Assembly (NCBI GenBank): GCA_027858735.1
Contig: JAQICC010000172.1
Span: forward strand, 8,201 to 72,200
DNA: 64,000 bases
Direction of reading: 5' to 3'
DNA from: Salinivirgaceae bacterium
GTDB taxonomy: Bacteria; Bacteroidota; Bacteroidia; Bacteroidales; SZUA-534
In this document: positions 7,779-56,836 of the stretch, piece after piece
How the letters are laid out: every line of letters begins with the position of its first letter
How positions within the stretch are numbered: the first letter of the stretch is position 1
Program-made: the position numbers and the translations under genes
The notes under the pieces: model-generated
Told to the model about the DNA's origin: nothing
Database searches by the model: none
Seen by the model: the letters and a program-made list of their open reading frames with translations, nothing else

Positions 7779-8432
7779 ATGAAAACCCCTATTATAGCCC
7801 CTTCAATTTTAGCCGCCGATTTCACCAATTTGGGACACGATATTGAAATGTTAAATAATAGTCAAGCCGATTGGATTCATGTGGATGTGATGGATGGTAT
7901 GTTTGTACCTAACATTTCATTTGGTATGCCGGTAATAAAAGCCGTAAATGGTATTGCAAAAAAACCTTTAGATGTACATTTAATGATTGAGAATCCAGAT
8001 CGTTATTTAGAGCAATTCAAGAAAGTAGGTGCTGAAATACTTACCGTACATTATGAAGCATGTCCGCATCTTCATAGAACCTTACAAGCTATAAAAGACT
8101 TAGGAATGAAAGCCGGGGTTTCTTTGAATCCGCACACCCCTATTAATGTATTGAACGATATTATTCATGACATTGATGTAGTACTCATAATGACGGTGAA
8201 TCCGGGCTTTGGCGGCCAGGTATTTATTGAGCATTCGTACAAAAAGATTGCCAAACTTAAGGAGTTAATTACCAAAACCAACTCAAAAACTCTCATTGAG
8301 GTTGATGGGGGTGTAACCACCGATAATTCCAAGAAACTTGTTGAAGCAGGTGTTGATATTTTAGTTGCAGGCAGTTCCGTTTTTGCTTCTGATAATCCAA
8401 GCAAAACAATTGAATTATTAAAATCAGTTTAA
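7779..8432 (+). CDS. rpe: Ribulose-phosphate 3-epimerase
   Basis: Motifs PSILAADF, MDGMFVPNISFG, MTVNPGFGGQ, VDGGV. The second ATG (7779) gives the canonical N-terminus. Confidence 0.9.
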   Translation: MKTPIIAPSILAADFTNLGHDIEMLNNSQADWIHVDVMDGMFVPNISFGMPVIKAVNGIAKKPLDVHLMIENPDRYLEQFKKVGAEILTVHYEACPHLHRTLQAIKDLGMKAGVSLNPHTPINVLNDIIHDIDVVLIMTVNPGFGGQVFIEHSYKKIAKLKELITKTNSKTLIEVDGGVTTDNSKKLVEAGVDILVAGSSVFASDNPSKTIELLKSV

Positions 8433-26374: not shown

Positions 26375-29300
26375 TCAATATCTAATAATAAAGGCACCCA
26401 AATCGGTTTCTGATTTTAAATCAAGCTTTTTACGTAGGCGCCATCGGGCTTTTTCAGTTCCTTTAAGCGAAATACTTAACAATTGGGCAATATCTTTCGA
26501 ACTCATGTTCATTCTTAAATAAGCACAAAATTGTAAATCTTTTGCATTAAGGTCTTCAAATTGCTCTTTAAGTCGGTTTAAAAAGTTATCATGAATTTCA
26601 TTAAAAAGCTTATCAAACTGGTTCCAGTCTTGCTGATTTTTAAGATTCATATCAATTTCGCGTTTAATGGTTGCAATTTTCTTTTGCAGGCCAGTATCCG
26701 ACTCATTCTCTAGCTCCGACAATTTCCCATTTAGTTGCGAAATAAGTTCGTTGGCACTTGTGGCTTTCATGGCTAACGAAGTAAGTTCAGCATTTTTACG
26801 ATCTACATCGTTTTGTTTTTGTTTAAGCTCTTTGGTTAGCAGCTCATTCTTCATTTTTATAATTTCCTTTTCTTGTTCAAGCCTATCCGCTTCAAGTTCC
26901 TTTTGCTTTAAAATAAGTCTATGCTTCTCTTTTTCTTCTGCTTCATTTTTTTTCTTTTCTGTAATAATTTGAAGTGTTTTTTGCTTAACCAATGCTTTTA
27001 GTTTGCTATTAAACAAACGTATATTTCGTAAACGATACAAAAACAACAAATAAACTATAAGTGAAACTAAAATTATAGACAATATAATAAACCACCAAGT
27101 TTGCCAAAAAGGTGGCTTTACAACTATATCTAAGGCATCTTGGGTAAATTCATCTTCATTATTATGATAAGCTCTGACTTTTAAAGTATAACCACCTGGT
27201 TTTAAATTTGTGAATGTAACTTTTGTTTGATTTTCGATTGCATGCCAGTTATCCTCAAAACCTTCAAGTATATATTGATAATTCACATTATTATCAAGAC
27301 CAAAACTTGGAGAATTAAACCCGAAACCAATCATTTTGTGCCTATACTCCAGTGTAATATTGTCTGTTTCAGCTAACGATTTTGTTAATAAATCACCTTT
27401 TCTTGGTGTTTGCTTATTGTTATATAAATAAAAGTCATGAATTACAACTGGTTGAATAAAACTATGCTTTTGTATTTTACTAGGTAAAAAACTAATAAAC
27501 CCACTATTTCCTCCAAAATATAAACGGTTTGATTTTGTTTTATAACAAGCCCTCTCGTTAAATTCATCCATGTAAATTCCATCAGCCTTGGTAAAAAGAT
27601 TATGTGTATTGGTTTCTTTATCAAATTTTACTAAGCCCTCATTACTTCCAAGCCAGAACATACCAAATTCATCATTTATAATTGACTTAATGTATAGGGG
27701 CAAATGGTAAAGCTGACTGTATTGTTCAAATTTAATGAGGCTATCTTCTTCCACTAATTTATCAAGGCCTCCGGTTGAACCAATCCACAGTTCTTTTTGA
27801 TAATCTTCAAAAATGGTATATATATTATTTGAACTTAAGGTGTTTGGATTGCTTTTCTCTGCAAAAAAACTTTTAACATTTTCGCCATCAAACATATACA
27901 ATCCATAATAACTGGCAATCCAAATTCTGTTTTTTGAGTCAACCAGTACTTGCGAGCACCAAGGAATATCAAATAGCTCAGATGGAAATTTCCCTTGATT
28001 TTCTTTATTATAAACAATATCGTTTAGCTTATTATAAATATTTATTCCAAGCTTACTATGAGTAAGTATAAACAGCAAACTATCATTATTGCATAGCGAT
28101 TTTAAGTTATTTGAATTTAGTCGCTTGTTTTCTATGTGCAGCTTTGCCTCAATACGGTTTTCTAATGTAGAATATCTTATTAATCCATCATTCCAAGTTG
28201 CCATCCAAACCGTTTCAGAATTTTCAGGTTTTATGTCTAATATAAAATTGCCAAAAGTTGTGTTAAAAGACCGCACAGTCTTAAAACCGCCAGTGTACTC
28301 ATCAAATTCATCCACACCTCCACCATCTGTACCTATTAAAACGTGTCCATCATTATTCTCACTGAAAGAAGTTACATTATTATTTTTAAGGGTATTAATT
28401 TCATTTTGAATTCTACTATATTGCGAGAATTGATGGGTTTGATAATTAAAATAACTCATGCCTCCTCCGTGAGAAGCTAGCCAAATATTTTCGTTAGCGT
28501 CTTCATAAACATCAGTTATACTATTTGAAGGCAAACTAAATGAATCGTATTCATTTGCTTTATAAGTTGAAAAACTATTTTCTGACGGATTATGCAAAAT
28601 AAGTCCTCCGTTTATAGTGCCTATCCAAATGTTATTTCTTGAATCTTGTATTATTTTAGTAATAATATTACTTGATAAAACAGAGCCACTATCGTTTGAA
28701 GCCATATAATGATCAAGTATGGTAAAACTAATTGGATCAATAACATAAACACCCTTATTCCAGGTGCCAACCCACAATTTACCTTCGCGTGTAAGGCAAA
28801 ATGTTTTTATTTGTTGCGGTAAATTCGCAATCTCAATCTTATTAAATTCTTTTTTATTAAGGTCATATTTTAATATACCATTACCATCGCTTCCTGCTAA
28901 AACTCCTATATGCTTATCAGCGACAAAACAATTCACTATTTCAGTAGTTGTCACATTTATTTTAACTGCTATCAAGGCATTTTTATCGGCATCAAAAACA
29001 AATACCCCTTTATTTGAACCAACCCATAGTGTTTGATTATAATCTGTATATAAAGCATGAATGCTATATTCTAAGGCACCTTGTTTAATTGCAACAAAGT
29101 CTTCTTTAAAATGGTTATATTTTAATACGCCAAACTTATTTGTGCCAATCCACATAATACTATCGGCACTAGCCATGCAGTTAATAATAGCCATATTATA
29201 AATATTGCTATCATCGGTAATTTTCAAAAAACTATGTGCATTATATTTATTTAAACCCAGTTCCGTACCTATCCATAAATATCCATATTTATCCTGCACC

Positions 29301-51697: not shown

Positions 51698-53794
51698 CTA
51701 TTTCAAATATTTATCCAACCAATCAAAAAACTCACGTTGCCACAAAATGGCATTTTGGGGTTGACTTACGAAATGTGTTTCTTCTGGAAAATACAAAAGC
51801 TTGCTTGGTATACCTTGCAACTGAGCGGCATTAAACGCTTGTAGTGATTCCGTGTAAGGTATTCTAAAATCTTTTCCTCCCGTTATAATTAAAATAGGAG
51901 TATCCCAATTTTGAACAAATTTATGAGGCGAATTGGCATATGATTTTTGGGCTACTTCATTATCAACCTCCCAAGGCATCCCACCCATATCGTGATTCAC
52001 AAAAAATGTTTCTTCTGTAGCAACAGCAAAACTTTCAAGGTTATACATTCCACAATGTGAAATAAAAGCTTTAAACCTTTTTTCATGATGCCCTGCTAAA
52101 TAAAAAGTTGAATAGCCACCATAACTTGCTCCCACACAACCCAATTTATTTTCATCAATAAAAGGCTCTGTTTTTAAGGCATCAATGGCCGATAGGTAAT
52201 CTTTAATATTCTGTCCTGCATAATCGGTTGAAATTTGCGCATTCCATTCCCGACCAAAAGAAGGCAACCCTCTTCGATTTGGAGCTACAATAATATAATC
52301 GTTAGCTGCCATGATGGCGAAATTCCAACGGTACGAGAAAAATTGACTCACAGCCGATTGTGGTCCACCCTGACAATATAATAATGCCGGATACTTTTTA
52401 TTGGCATCAAAATTTGGTGGATATATCACCCAAACAAGCATATCCTTACCATCAGTAGTTTTAATCCATCGCTCTTCGGTATGCCCAAGATTAATGCTAT
52501 CGTAAATGTTTTTATTTATAAATGTTACCTGAGTGTCTTTGCCTGAAGCTTCATTAATAACAAATATTTCAGCAGCCATTTGATGCGTGGTTTTTGAGCC
52601 AATAATATTACCACTTGCCATTGAGAATCCTTGATAGTCGTGCTGACCTTTGGTTATTTGGGTAAATTCTTTAGATGCGATGGTAACTTTATATATTTGA
52701 GAGGTAGCCTTTATTCCACTCATAAAATAAATCACTTTGCCATCGCTATTCCATACGTAATCATATGCGTTCTGATCCCAACTCTCATTCAAATAATGCT
52801 TTTTACCACTTGCTAAATCCAGCACCATTAGTCGTTCTTTGTCAGCTTCATAACCTGGTGTTTCCATGCTCATCCATGCAATTTTATTTCCATCGGGCGA
52901 AAACACTGGATACTTATCATAACCTTTATTATCTTTTGTAATATTTTTAGTCTCTTTGGTTTCAATATCGTACAAGTATATGTCGGAATTTGTACTAACT
53001 GCATATTTTCTACCATATAATTTTTTACAGGTGTAAGCAATGGTTTTACCACTAGGGCTCCAGCTTATTTCAGATTCGTCAAAATAAGGTGATAAAGGAG
53101 CATCCCACTTTTCACCCTCCATAATATCAACTCCCTCTTTTACTTTTGAATCAATAACCTCAGCAACAAAAATGTGAGAGAATTTATAATCTGTCCAATC
53201 ATTCCAATGACGGTACATTAAATCATCCATTACCCTAGCATTAGCTTCAGGTAAATCAGCATGTTTTTCAAGAACTGTGGTTTCCAGCTTTACATCTTTC
53301 AAATAAAACATCTTTGAACCATCGGGCGATATACGGAAGGCATTTACGCCCCCTTCAATTTCAGAAAAAGGCATTCTAGCAGAACCGTCGTAGTTCATTA
53401 CCCAAACCTGATAATCACCATAGCGATTCGAAAGAAAAGCAATACGACCGTCGGGCATCCAGGTTGGTGACACATCCATAAACCTATCCTCGGTTAATAG
53501 ATTGGGTTCACCACCTTTGGCCGGTATAACATAAACATTCGATGTTTTTTTTAGGGTTTTTGCATCATACCTGCTCACACTGTAAACAATAAATTCGCCA
53601 TCAGGAGATAATTCAGCATTACCAAGCCTCCCAAATTTCCATAAAATTTCGGGGGTTAGTTTTGCATCTTTAATTTCTTTTTCGGTAAGTTCGCCGCTAA
53701 AATCTGATACTACTTCAAGTTCGGTTGTTTTTTCAGTGTTGCACGATACCAGAACCATAAACCCAAGTAATACTAACAAAAATAAATTCTTCAT
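51698..53794 (-). CDS. S9 family serine peptidase with N-terminal PD40/WD40-like beta-propeller (secreted)
   Basis: Signal peptide with lipobox-like LVSC, propeller repeats (SPDG...), catalytic GASYGGY, C-terminal peptidase_S9 domain. Confidence 0.85.
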   Translation of the reverse strand: MKNLFLLVLLGFMVLVSCNTEKTTELEVVSDFSGELTEKEIKDAKLTPEILWKFGRLGNAELSPDGEFIVYSVSRYDAKTLKKTSNVYVIPAKGGEPNLLTEDRFMDVSPTWMPDGRIAFLSNRYGDYQVWVMNYDGSARMPFSEIEGGVNAFRISPDGSKMFYLKDVKLETTVLEKHADLPEANARVMDDLMYRHWNDWTDYKFSHIFVAEVIDSKVKEGVDIMEGEKWDAPLSPYFDESEISWSPSGKTIAYTCKKLYGRKYAVSTNSDIYLYDIETKETKNITKDNKGYDKYPVFSPDGNKIAWMSMETPGYEADKERLMVLDLASGKKHYLNESWDQNAYDYVWNSDGKVIYFMSGIKATSQIYKVTIASKEFTQITKGQHDYQGFSMASGNIIGSKTTHQMAAEIFVINEASGKDTQVTFINKNIYDSINLGHTEERWIKTTDGKDMLVWVIYPPNFDANKKYPALLYCQGGPQSAVSQFFSYRWNFAIMAANDYIIVAPNRRGLPSFGREWNAQISTDYAGQNIKDYLSAIDALKTEPFIDENKLGCVGASYGGYSTFYLAGHHEKRFKAFISHCGMYNLESFAVATEETFFVNHDMGGMPWEVDNEVAQKSYANSPHKFVQNWDTPILIITGGKDFRIPYTESLQAFNAAQLQGIPSKLLYFPEETHFVSQPQNAILWQREFFDWLDKYLK

Positions 53795-53840: not shown

Positions 53841-53888
53841 ACAAGGAATATATGCACAGCTGAATATTTTTTTGCAGTTATAAAGCAC

Positions 53889-53924
53889 AAAAAAAGCCCT
53901 GAATTAAAATCCAGAGCTTTTTTT
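53889..53924 (-). terminator. Bidirectional A-run/hairpin/T-run terminator after the prolyl oligopeptidase gene
   Basis: aaaaaaagccctgaattaaaatccagagcttttttt. A 40-nt block is shared with 56495-56533. Confidence 0.6.
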
Positions 53925-53970: not shown

Positions 53971-56136
53971 CTAATCCTTTAGGTTATAATCCGGATGGCC
54001 GGTTTGCCAAAGGGCAAAGGATATTGCATCGGCTAATTGTTTATAAACTTTGTTCTCATCAGCCTGTAAACCATGGCCCCCTTCAAAATCGACTGAAAAT
54101 AAAATGGGCTTATCCGATTTATTATAGGCCTGCATTTTCGCGGCAAACTTTCCTGGCTGCCATACCTGTACCCTATTGTCATTCATGCCAGCTGTCAGAT
54201 AAATTGCAGGATAGTTAACATTCTTTTTTATACTTTGATAGGCATCCATTTCTAACAAATATAAAAACTCCAGAGAATCATTTGCATTTCCAAATTCATA
54301 TACATTATCCTGCCCATTGGGGCCAAACTGAACCCGTGTAGTATTTAGAATCCCCACCTCAATAATAGCCGCCGCATACAAATCGGGTCTTTCAGTTATA
54401 GCTCTTCCAATTAGTATACCCCCAGCACTACCACTCCATATGGCATGTTTTTCAGGTGAAGTATACCCATTTTTTATCAAGTACTCTGAACAAGCTATAA
54501 AATCTTTCCAGGTATTGGGCTTTGTTTTTTTATACCCCCCCATATACCAGGCATCACCTTTTTCACCACCACCACGTACATGAGCGGATGCATAAATCCC
54601 ACCTGCTCTAATCCAACTTAATAAATAGATATCAAGAAAAGGGGAATCATTTGAACCATATGCACCATAACCAGTCATTAAAAGTCTGTTTTTACCATCT
54701 AGCTTCGTTCCTTTCTTATATATAATTGATAATGGTACTTTAACTCCATCGTGCGATACTACTTCGATTTCTTCTACAATCGTATTTTCAGTCGCCTTAA
54801 ATTTTTTAATAGGATATATGTTTTCTTCAACAAATAATTCTTTTTCAAAATCATACCTGTAACTTTCCAAATTAGAAGTCCATCCTTTTATTCGAATCCA
54901 GATTTTTTTGCTATAATCTCCATAAGTGGTTAGTTTTAAGGTTCCTGCAACTTTAGGTATTGTAACTTGTTTGGCAATTAAATCCGTTTTACAGAACAAC
55001 TGAGCATCAACACCATTTTTTGTTTTAACATAGAATAAACCCTTTTCACTTAACAAAAAGTCAGTAATTACTGCCATTGTATCCTCAGGTACTACTATTT
55101 CAGGGTTTGAAAAATCAGGATTTATTAGCGAAGTTTTACAAATTTTATAATTCGGTGCATTAAAGGCTGATGTAAAGTATAGTGAGTCGTTTTTAACAAA
55201 GAATTGGTCTATTTTATCTTTTTGTTTGAATAAAGGTTTCCAATCGATTACTCCATCAATAGTATTTATATTTGTAAAATAAAAATCATTGAATCTTCTT
55301 GGACCAGAAATTCCTCCAAATAAGTAGTTGTTTTCTTTATAAATAGTAGGGAAATCTTCCTCATTAATATTAAGTGCTGGATTATTCCTTTTTGAAAGCA
55401 ATACCTTTTTTTTTGATGCCCTATTATTAAATTTATATAAGACTGACTCTGAATTTAGCAAAGAATTTTCTGAGGTATTATCAATAACTGGGATATTCAA
55501 ATAAATGATACCTGAATTATCAGGCAACCACAATATACCACCAAACTCGGATGGCCAGCAATGATCTATTGTATCTGTCATTATTAGCTCTGTGGCAACA
55601 TCTAAAAAAATCACTTTCGAAAACTCTTCATCGTTTTTGGTCAAACCAATCGCAATTTTTGATCCATCTTCATTTGGGTTTATGTAATTAATTAGGTAAT
55701 TATTGCTTGTTTTTGGCATAAAATATGAAGGATCATACAATAGCTTTTCCTCACCTTCAAAACCATTTCTAAAAAATAATTTTCCAACCGATTCATTGTT
55801 AACGTATTTAAGATAAAAACACCTATTATTATTTGCTACTTTAAGCATGGAAGTTTCAGGAGTTGTATCTTCCTTTATTGTAAGCTTCTCCACTATTTGG
55901 CTCCAACCCGAAATATTCCGAACAATACTTTTCGAATAACTATCCTGCTTTTTATACCAGACTAATAAAGTAGTATCATCAAGGTTTTCTAAAAAACGGT
56001 AAGGATCATTTAACTCATATCCAAAAGAACTCTCCGCAACCTTGCTTTCTGGTAATAACAAATAATTATACTTATGTTTTGTTGTACAACCTATTGCTAA
56101 AATAGTAATTAATACAAATTTGTAGTAGAATTTCAT
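53971..56136 (-). CDS. Prolyl oligopeptidase family (S9A) lipoprotein
   Basis: Lipobox LAIGC. N-terminal DPYRFLEN motif, beta-propeller, catalytic SGSAGGIL and C-terminal GGHG. Confidence 0.85.
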   Translation of the reverse strand: MKFYYKFVLITILAIGCTTKHKYNYLLLPESKVAESSFGYELNDPYRFLENLDDTTLLVWYKKQDSYSKSIVRNISGWSQIVEKLTIKEDTTPETSMLKVANNNRCFYLKYVNNESVGKLFFRNGFEGEEKLLYDPSYFMPKTSNNYLINYINPNEDGSKIAIGLTKNDEEFSKVIFLDVATELIMTDTIDHCWPSEFGGILWLPDNSGIIYLNIPVIDNTSENSLLNSESVLYKFNNRASKKKVLLSKRNNPALNINEEDFPTIYKENNYLFGGISGPRRFNDFYFTNINTIDGVIDWKPLFKQKDKIDQFFVKNDSLYFTSAFNAPNYKICKTSLINPDFSNPEIVVPEDTMAVITDFLLSEKGLFYVKTKNGVDAQLFCKTDLIAKQVTIPKVAGTLKLTTYGDYSKKIWIRIKGWTSNLESYRYDFEKELFVEENIYPIKKFKATENTIVEEIEVVSHDGVKVPLSIIYKKGTKLDGKNRLLMTGYGAYGSNDSPFLDIYLLSWIRAGGIYASAHVRGGGEKGDAWYMGGYKKTKPNTWKDFIACSEYLIKNGYTSPEKHAIWSGSAGGILIGRAITERPDLYAAAIIEVGILNTTRVQFGPNGQDNVYEFGNANDSLEFLYLLEMDAYQSIKKNVNYPAIYLTAGMNDNRVQVWQPGKFAAKMQAYNKSDKPILFSVDFEGGHGLQADENKVYKQLADAISFALWQTGHPDYNLKD

Positions 56137-56203
56137 TTTTCTGGTTTTAAATATCTAATAAAAAAATGGGTTATAATAAAAAATTATTAACAACCCAAAA
56201 AAA

Positions 56204-56344
56204 TCATGAATGTGTACCGCCAGTTCCTGTTTTGACACGATTATGACCACCATCTGTAGCAGTACCTCCTACTATTTTTTGAAGACCAGCAGTGTTTAAT
56301 ACGATGTGCTTTTTGACGTCTAGTTTTGAACGATTCTTTCTCAC
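56204..56344 (-). CDS. Small GG-leader peptide (bacteriocin/RiPP-precursor-like, 46 aa, not in ORF track)
   Basis: GTG 56344. (M)RKNRSKLDVKKHIVLNTAGLQKIVGG-TATDGGHNRVKTGTGGTHS, TGA at 56204-56206. The leader fits the Bacteroidota KL.L.K..I..L....L..(I/V).GG pattern. It lies 67 nt upstream of, and co-oriented with, the S9A gene, after the upstream terminator. There is no in-frame ATG, so the start is uncertain. Confidence 0.45.
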   Translation of the reverse strand: MRKNRSKLDVKKHIVLNTAGLQKIVGGTATDGGHNRVKTGTGGTHS

Positions 56345-56502
56345 TTTTTTCCTATACTATTAATTTAAAATTTGAGTTGTAAATATAAAATCATTTAATA
56401 TTTATTACCACACATTTTATATTAATATTTATAAACTTAGGCCTTACTCAGAAATAAACATGAAATCTAAATGATGAAACATTTTTAAAAACTTTAAAGC
56501 AC

Positions 56503-56534
56503 AAAAAAAGCCCTGAATTAAAATTCAGAGCTTT
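56503..56534 (-). terminator. A-run/hairpin terminator after the oxidoreductase gene
   Basis: aaaaaaagccctgaattaaaattcagagcttt. On the minus strand the hairpin is followed by T7. Confidence 0.55.
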
Positions 56535-56836
56535 CATAATAACAAATATTTTCAGTTTTTAGGTAAGCCGTCTTTGGTCTTCAGTACGTAGTCTTTAGTC
56601 TTCAGTAACTTGCCGACTGTTTACTTTTTACAATATCTCACCTAAAAAACTCTTTATAAAGTTATCTTCCACAAAATTCCTAGCCTGAACTATGCATAAA
56701 TTTGGAAAAATATGCATAAAGGTCAGGATAGTCCCGACTTAAATGCAGTTAAACTTTTTTCAAAAGTTTTTACTAAATCTTAGTCGCTGTCGGAGACAGG
56801 GATTATTCGTGAATAATCCGGGTTAGACTTATATAA

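Follow-up and report, generated by a model that had tools for sequence, protein, structure and literature searches.

The question raised by this locus is whether a very short open reading frame (ORF) in front of a peptidase gene encodes a genuine precursor peptide and, if it does, which proteins would modify, export and cut it. The window, that is, the whole stretch of DNA analysed, comprises 64,000 nucleotides (nt) of contig JAQICC010000172.1 from a Salinivirgaceae bacterium (positions 8,201 to 72,200 of the forward strand). On its minus strand, a 46-codon ORF whose leader ends in a double glycine (GG) lies directly upstream of a gene for an exported prolyl oligopeptidase of family S9A. In relatives, the peptide and the S9A enzyme appear, from gene order and homology, to form the centre of a module whose main occurrence is in another bacterial family, here called f8. 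The window ORF is, on balance, probably a genuine, divergent member of this module that is still able to work with modification and export machinery encoded on another contig (C84) of the same genome.

The ORF extends from 56204 to 56344 on the minus strand and consists of 46 codons and a stop codon; behind an in-frame TAG (56357-56359), GTG is the sole start available to it. The gene caller had predicted the same ORF (46-residue protein P0002). Its translation comprises the leader VRKNRSKLDVKKHIVLNTAGLQKIVGG (56264-56344, minus strand; 27 residues, with GG at residues 26-27) and then the core TATDGGHNRVKTGTGGTHS (56207-56263, minus strand; 19 residues). The core contains 6 Ser/Thr and 5 Gly, no Cys and no Pro, and Pro is lacking over the entire length of the peptide, leader included. 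A GTG-started ORF with a GG-ended leader, a 19-residue core without Cys and Pro, and a spacing of 67 nt to the S9A gene had all been claimed in the preliminary description from the letters alone, and all three are confirmed. Contigs from four DNA runs are identical to the window and variant-free.

The S9A gene (53971-56136, minus strand) begins with an ATG 67 nt beyond the peptide ORF on the same strand and encodes 721 residues. Pfam models bear out the proposed identity of the enzyme, with matches to Peptidase_S9 (PF00326, E=5.3e-44) and Peptidase_S9_N (PF02897, E=7.6e-22). The β-propeller N-domain, the α/β hydrolase domain and the Ser-Asp-His residues by which MEROPS defines S9A are all present. 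Ser570, Asp653 and His688 are invariant in an alignment of 66 S9A sequences and, from the GxSxGG, D and GGH motifs, are read here as the putative catalytic triad. The N-terminus MKFYYKFVLITILAIGC, which ends in LAIGC, resembles a lipoprotein signal when judged by eye, as had been proposed. The enzyme has 370 database homologues at E≤1e-30, with identities of up to 57%; those with a name belong to Kordia, Aquimarina, Sinomicrobium, Polaribacter and Tenacibaculum, with more than one copy in several of the genomes concerned. A close S9A occurs in two of the 401 genomes of a class-level sample, the window's own included. The S9A query against the genome contigs returned just one relative, at 28% identity, and in none of the other 32 genomes from the family of the window was an S9A above 29% identity found.

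The main evidence for the peptide comes from the genes that stand in front of related S9A genes. S9A loci were gathered from two sets of 401 genomes, one drawn from the phylum and one from family f8, and the DNA upstream of each gene was read. A FastTree phylogeny of 72 S9A proteins, from which partial matches of fewer than 500 aligned residues were excluded (L013, L016-L019, L023 and L026), contains a clade of 15 rows with a support of 98 that includes the window gene. A same-strand ORF with a GG leader lies 0-101 nt upstream in 13 of these 15 rows, the window among them. Eleven of the 13 are intact, while L030 is interrupted by an in-frame stop and L063 by a frameshift. The clade has two rows without a peptide, one of which (L069) comes with just about 200 nt of upstream sequence. 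Such an ORF is absent upstream of all the other 57 rows, which comprise 24 from family f25, 20 others from f8, and 13 distant paralogues, 12 of these from the window's own family. Eight of the 13 peptides were found by a model trained on the five others. The earlier proposal of a precursor with a GG leader, of the type found in peptides made by ribosomes and modified after translation (RiPPs), paired with an S9A peptidase, is supported by this distribution. Signal-like N-termini, judged by eye, are present on all S9As of the peptide-linked clade.

The locus with the in-frame stop (L030/L118, genome G271) also holds a second leader-like fragment about 730 nt upstream of its S9A gene. Its second, tandem S9A is broken into pieces of 601 and 130 residues, and its LanB is intact. 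This cluster appears to be decaying.

The upstream peptides belong to a larger family. Searched against 1.84 billion proteins, a profile built from the 11 intact members matches 428 cluster representatives with E≤1e-3, 8 of them with E≤1e-10, and nearly all representatives are 43-81 residues long. The leader is approximately MKKxxxxEKKLSLKKFQIAKIxNPxxIxGG. In the alignment of 11 sequences (A2), K7 and G26 are at least 90% conserved, and L8, K12 and G27 are invariant. The cores are variable, with a median of 24 residues over 128 parsed cores, and T, G and D make up about 13% each, Thr being the commonest residue. Ser or Thr occurs in 127 of these cores and Pro in 97, often in a Pro-Thr motif; 37 have acidic runs and 19 at least two Cys. 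The composition of the window core is in line with this family, and stretches like its VKTGT and GTGG recur in P0132 and P0194. The profile is also specific: over five genomes, the five matches at E≤1.7e-11 are exactly the peptides adjacent to S9A genes, and 16 weaker matches are other GG peptides, mostly rich in Cys, with no S9A within 1.5 kb. The small ORF was also considered as a regulatory upstream ORF of the S9A gene, which was rejected; a secreted product is favoured by the conservation of the GG end, by the variability of the core and by the 428 members.

One genome with the pair, G996, has at least 15 further GG-leader peptide genes, mostly Cys-rich (loci L092-L107 and the L112 region). 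Two of these lie 3-5 kb from its only LanB, on the same contig as its S9A pair and 51 kb away from it.

The surroundings of the pair in 10 relatives, surveyed over about 9 kb on either side (128 ORFs), contain further constant or frequent partners. A protein of 558-635 residues with a C-terminal AraC-type HTH_18 domain adjoins the peptide in all 10. A split LanB, made of a Lant_dehydr_N protein of about 740-790 residues and a Lant_dehydr_C protein of about 285 residues, is found in six, and LANC_like in none. A C39 ABC exporter occurs in three relatives, in one of them split by an inserted gene, with HlyD in two of these clusters, and a tandem S9A pair occurs in two. In all 10 regulators the N-terminus is signal-like and a single strong hydrophobic helix immediately precedes the helix-turn-helix (HTH) domain, and therefore about 360 residues are predicted to lie outside the cytoplasm; TPR matches fall within this part in some. 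The exporter split by an inserted gene (L113:11099-14416, genome G779) lies downstream of its S9A gene and is divided into a C39 and membrane part of 339 residues and an ATPase part of 404 residues. The inserted gene, in opposite orientation, encodes a 334-residue HTH_38 protein with a second copy about 3 kb further on, and looks like an insertion sequence.

One rival view of the peptide leaves LanB out of the module. If LanB is irrelevant, the peptide would be an unmodified exported bacteriocin or signal that needs C39 only, and the S9A would protect the producer or switch the signal off by degradation in the periplasm. The absence of LanB within 9 kb of the pair in four of the 10 relatives agrees with this, as does the outward sensor domain of the regulator, which suits signalling. 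The S9A is exported and therefore meets the peptide only after export, which also counts in its favour. Rce1-like (CPBP) proteins often act in bacteriocin immunity, and membrane protease homologues of this type occur near the pair in two of the 10 relatives (L116:4950-5696 and L118:14437-15420). Against this view, LanB directly adjoins six of the 10 pairs, and in each of the five tested genomes where the 9 kb around the pair hold no LanB, exactly one is encoded at another place. Lant_dehydr_N is found in 34 of the 401 f8 genomes, among them all seven with an intact peptide-S9A pair, which represent seven genera. Outside these 34 are the genome with the frameshifted peptide (G934) and two clade members in which no peptide was detected (G820 and G1121). 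Over all genomes with an intact peptide, LanB is present in 11 of 11, against 34 of 401 in f8 overall. A rate of seven in seven, where the background is about 8%, is difficult to explain by chance, with the reservation that kinship inflates any formal test. The LanBs adjoining S9A pairs are 35-46% identical to one another. The Ser/Thr content of the parsed cores, with Thr the commonest residue, also speaks against an unmodified product, which is accordingly regarded as improbable.

The genome of the window has this machinery at another place. Lant_dehydr_N, Lant_dehydr_C and the C39 exporter each occur in it exactly once, and all three lie on contig C84, where they are part of a complete class I lanthipeptide cluster outside the window (L122:6485-16519, minus strand). 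The order of genes is LanA, LanC, an OmpA-family gene, LanB-N, LanB-C, the C39 exporter, a PD-(D/E)XK gene and HlyD. The LanA (16364-16519 of L122, minus strand) has 51 residues, a GG leader and 4 Cys. Class I LanB and LanC thus occur in the genome only through C84, beside their own LanA and not in the window. The C39-ABC protein has 729 residues and is unlinked to the window; it is the only C39 match of the genome, so that the window itself holds none. The preliminary description had stated that neither a C39 exporter nor a radical-SAM partner is present. As far as exporter, LanB and LanC are concerned, the lack of such partners holds for the window, whose genome keeps its C39 on C84; it does not hold for the genome, with LanB, LanC and C39 on that contig, nor for the clusters of the relatives. 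With LanB, the C39 exporter and HlyD on C84, modifying and exporting machinery is available in trans, and the GG at residues 26-27, together with a C39 exporter in the genome, is what putative cleavage of the double-glycine type requires.

The DNA around the window ORF resembles that of the relatives in two respects. The first is a hairpin at 56168-56196 followed by a U-run at 56155-56167 (together 56155-56196, minus strand), which lies right after the peptide stop and is terminator- or attenuator-like. Its folding energy is -11.8 kcal/mol (z -1.9) and is matched by 9 of 200 shuffled sequences. According to our own reading of the folds, a strong hairpin stands at the equivalent site in five of the 10 relatives, with a U-run directly after it in four. 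The peptide and S9A genes had been proposed to form a two-gene unit. The hairpin and U-run lie between the peptide stop and the S9A start, and therefore the two genes are not simply one uninterrupted unit. The second feature is an operator-like motif, AAGTTTATAAATATT (56424-56438, minus strand), which precedes the GTG by about 85-92 nt. Most of the 10 relatives have a palindrome centred on ATTTATAAAT or a near variant about 70-100 nt before the peptide start, with locus-specific arms of 6-10 bp (L028, L057-L060 and others), and this palindrome is likely to be the operator of the adjoining membrane AraC regulator. The sequence TTTATAAA is present 16 times in the 64-kb window, so the window's operator-like copy is weak evidence when taken alone. 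A scan for sigma-70 promoters, with a model not meant for Bacteroidota, gave sites no more numerous than in shuffled sequence.

Judged by sequence alone, the case for the window ORF as a member of the family is marginal, and a number of results weigh against its being a working one. A leave-one-out profile made from the 10 other peptides gives it 11.8 bits (E 0.027), rank 2 of the 2,439 frames of the window, and with a leader model from 145 other members it reaches 8.6 bits (E 0.25) and ranks first among the 2,439. No Pfam or NCBIfam model matches the peptide. Relatives read ATG AAA AAA where the window has AGG AAA AAA GTG, so that, with AGG (56351-56353, minus strand) at the position of their ATG, the ORF can be started only at the GTG three codons downstream. 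The core is free of Pro, whereas 11 of the 13 S9A-linked cores and 97 of the 128 parsed cores have at least one. The hydrophobic block FQIAKI of the family leader is HIVLNT in the window leader, a sign of erosion. LanB does not adjoin the window pair; the LanB on C84 has its own Cys-containing LanA and LanC and is just 34-35% identical to the LanBs beside S9A pairs. The genome yields no full-length homologue of the TPR-AraC regulator, only matches at the level of the HTH domain.

The low scores leave room for a chance ORF, that is, an AT-rich intergenic stretch open by accident, with a Lys-rich segment that happens to end in GG. An unrelated frame at 27839-27934 (plus strand) reaches 12.1 bits with the leave-one-out profile, against 11.8 for the peptide ORF. 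The preliminary description had proposed a search with GG-leader hidden Markov models of the TIGR04149 type; neither TIGR04149 nor NF038153 (lant_leader_L1a) matches the peptide at E≤10. These models are also weak on the 11 aligned family members, of which NF038153 matches five and TIGR04149 three at E≤1 (best E 2.9e-4 and 2.2e-4); the scores displayed, 13.0-19.8 bits, are under the cut-offs of 22 and 25. As a single query, the peptide finds nothing beyond itself in its own genome or in a word index of 5.8 billion proteins. In the 32 other genomes of its own family, it gives three matches with E of 0.7-1.4 inside long frames, which are taken as noise. A match of E=1.3e-10 in its own genome was obtained with a model that included this very peptide.

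Accident is nevertheless a highly improbable explanation. The ORF occupies the same position and strand as the peptides of 12 other members of the S9A clade. The alignment with the 145-member leader model runs over positions 2-30 of 30 and so covers the whole leader and stops exactly at GG. The ORF also agrees with the family in its core composition, its operator-like motif and the hairpin behind its stop codon. We infer roughly that, of the 2,439 frames, one of the two best would fall by chance within these 300 nt on this strand with a probability of about 0.5%. Membership is thus assigned on the basis of position, strand, S9A clade, core composition, operator-like motif and hairpin, and not on the basis of the sequence score.

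Decay is a serious rival for the window copy. The S9A gene may have been transferred with the remains of a precursor gene that had lost its ATG, its regulator and its Pro; the peptide would then be silent and the S9A an ordinary periplasmic oligopeptidase beside Dpp5. The AGG, which we infer to mark a lost start codon, fits this, as do the leader scores of 8.6-11.8 bits obtained when the peptide is left out of the model, the Pro-free core and the failure to find a regulator homologue in the genome. Peptide decay has taken place in two relatives, by a stop (L030) and by a frameshift (L063), and the 401-genome search finds no LanB in the genome of the latter. Next downstream lies the gene of an exported Dpp5 equivalog (E=6e-295).

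Other observations speak for a peptide that is still maintained. The 46-codon frame is open in DNA of about 28-30% G+C, where by a rough estimate a random frame would be open about 2% of the time, and it is open although the S9A is down to 52% identity with its nearest relative. Retained are the GG end, the K-L-x-V-K-K block and the hairpin behind the stop, and an A-rich region precedes the GTG. Cores without Pro are a real minority in the family, found in 2 of the 13 S9A-linked and 31 of the 128 parsed cores. The weak points listed in the preliminary description (the GTG start, the Pro-free core and the exported enzyme) are genuine and matter for the question of whether this copy is still functional. 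Taken together, a silent relic is considered unlikely, while carrying more weight than the other alternatives to a working peptide, and a genuine, divergent member of the module remains the preferred reading.

The position of the window gene in the S9A phylogeny indicates how the pair came into this genome. The window S9A nests among f8 sequences, beside L057 at 52% identity, and an orthologue is missing from its own family; horizontal acquisition is therefore the simplest reading. The donor of the cassette was most likely f8-like. Two terminator copies bracket the pair, as had been noted from the letters. Copy A (56495-56534, minus strand) lies downstream of a GFO/IDH/MocA oxidoreductase gene at the left edge of the cassette, and copy B (53881-53920, minus strand) lies downstream of the S9A gene at the right edge. 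They are identical at 39 of 40 nt and are the only two copies in the 6-Mb genome by a search with a 31-nt pattern. This duplicated terminator looks like an insertion scar. An empty site was not found: the same-genus genome G002 keeps the order of pyrophosphatase and oxidoreductase, and its downstream DNA is different. The G+C content of the cassette (0.28-0.40) is the same as that of its flanks, so composition gives no sign of transfer.

Upstream of the cassette lie the GFO/IDH/MocA oxidoreductase, which is its immediate neighbour, and a membrane pyrophosphatase; the adjoining HTH_18 regulator of about 560-635 residues that belongs to the full module is absent here. The Dpp5 dipeptidyl-peptidase gene (51698-53794, minus strand; NF053518) is directly downstream. 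Two S9-family peptidase genes, S9A and Dpp5, are thereby consecutive, and they are followed by a 5TM-LYT/PAS hybrid histidine kinase. At 56586-56690, several unrelated metagenome contigs match the window over just 35-46 nt and then diverge. This segment holds a short direct repeat, CTGAAGACYAAAGAC, twice, and is probably a dispersed short repeat of the community.

From the gene content we take the window copy to be a minimal form, gained by horizontal transfer, of a LanB-type RiPP or peptide-signalling module. It is stripped-down and possibly decaying, and of the parts of the module the window has just the operator-like region, the peptide and the S9A. The full module, as reconstructed from the relatives, would consist of a membrane regulator (signal peptide, outward TPR domain of about 360 residues, one transmembrane helix and a cytoplasmic AraC HTH), a peptide gene behind a palindromic operator, and one or two exported S9As. 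It often includes a split LanB without LanC and sometimes a C39 ABC exporter with HlyD. The conserved gene order, the co-occurrence of LanB, the signal-like N-termini of the S9As, the predicted topology of the regulator and the C84 genes can be read from the genomes, and the biochemical steps are proposed from them. In the first step, the leader would guide LanB to dehydrate Thr and Ser of a core that is rich in Thr, Gly and Asp and mostly poor in Cys. The C39 exporter would then cleave after GG and export the core. Prolyl oligopeptidases act on peptides of about 30 residues or fewer, and the exported S9A would cut the short core after export, typically beside a Pro-Thr motif. Lastly, the outward TPR domain of the regulator may sense the peptide product or its removal. 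The S9A may serve maturation, quenching or immunity. The predicted complex of the window S9A with the peptide scores 0.02, against a mark of 0.32. The window copy, if it works, would be translated from GTG, use the LanB, C39 exporter and HlyD of C84, and run without a cognate regulator.

Several known systems resemble parts of this module. Class I lanthipeptides of Bacteroidota are described in sections of PMC7268733 as having an LxLxK-type leader block with a GG end, a split LanB and C39 export. The pinensin-type clusters are similar to the present ones in the LxLxK/GG leader, in a LanB divided into glutamylation and elimination proteins, and in the C39 exporter (PMC7268733). NF038153 ('class I lanthipeptide') also matches 5 of the 11 family members, weakly. 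In contrast, the cores here are mostly poor in Cys, none of the 10 contexts has LanC, and the constant partners are an exported S9A and a membrane TPR-AraC regulator. The window core has no Cys, and therefore no lanthionine is possible; the product would not be a lanthipeptide in the strict sense.

Prolyl oligopeptidases are also known beside other ribosomal peptides. FlaP is reportedly a prolyl oligopeptidase of class III lanthipeptide maturation. Like the S9A here, FlaP and the LanPB group are S9 prolyl oligopeptidases encoded with a lanthipeptide-type precursor, which they are taken to cut. Unlike it, they are part of class III (LanKC) systems in Actinobacteria and Firmicutes, in which it is the leader that the peptidase takes off. 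Here the GG leader is of the kind handled by a C39 exporter, and the S9A has a signal peptide and would act on the exported core. Processing of the FlaP and POPB kind is directed by Pro at the cleavage site, which the Pro-free window peptide does not offer, while 11 of the 13 linked cores contain Pro. The partnership of LanPB-group prolyl oligopeptidases with class III lanthipeptides is set out in part of PMC7268733.

POPB, PCY1 and OphP are S9A macrocyclases that are eukaryotic, intracellular and strictly Pro-directed. Nothing here indicates cyclisation, and the window core again lacks Pro. The likeness lies in a prolyl oligopeptidase that acts on a short ribosomal peptide (PMC12235650). The autoinduction of NisRK and SpaRK is comparable in that a cluster-encoded sensor stands beside the gene of an exported peptide, with a conserved operator upstream of the peptide. 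The sensor here is in contrast a one-component membrane TPR-AraC protein and not a two-component system, its sensing is putative, and the window is without it.

Full-text searches of the literature, together with passages of PMC7268733, PMC13056109, PMC10734526, PMC10352776, PMC12328550 and PMC8960859, yielded no description of a cluster that combines a LanC-less split LanB, a Cys-poor GG peptide, an exported S9A and a TPR-AraC regulator; the Pedobacter lanthipeptide papers (Caetano et al. 2020, Bothwell et al. 2021) and the supplementary tables of PMC7268733 lie outside that scope and may bear on novelty. What comes closest in these texts is an unrelated MNIO lipopeptide cluster with a secreted prolyl oligopeptidase (PMC13056109). 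The survey in PMC7268733, by the sections that set out its approach, began from LanC-like proteins and would therefore miss clusters without LanC. More generally, this family would escape RiPP mining that sets out from LanC or known precursor models, because the peptide is too short and divergent for the curated models and the clusters lack LanC.

At its fullest extent, the module could be an undescribed Gram-negative circuit, in which a GG peptide with a Cys-poor core rich in Thr, Asp and Gly is dehydrated by a LanC-less split LanB, exported by C39 and cut in the periplasm by a dedicated exported S9A, and in which a one-component membrane TPR-AraC sensor reads the product and drives the peptide's own palindromic operator. 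The window would then hold an orphan signal-protease pair, captured without its sensor in a different family. This extended reading is doubtful.

For annotation, the small ORF of the window merits the label of a candidate precursor peptide, possibly decaying, with a link to the lanthipeptide machinery of C84. To our knowledge, little is known of the natural substrates of bacterial prolyl oligopeptidases. If the proposed partnership of a small exported peptide, an exported prolyl oligopeptidase and an outward AraC-type sensor is true, these enzymes would gain a dedicated substrate in bacteria, and a peptide-based regulatory loop would be suggested for marine flavobacteria.

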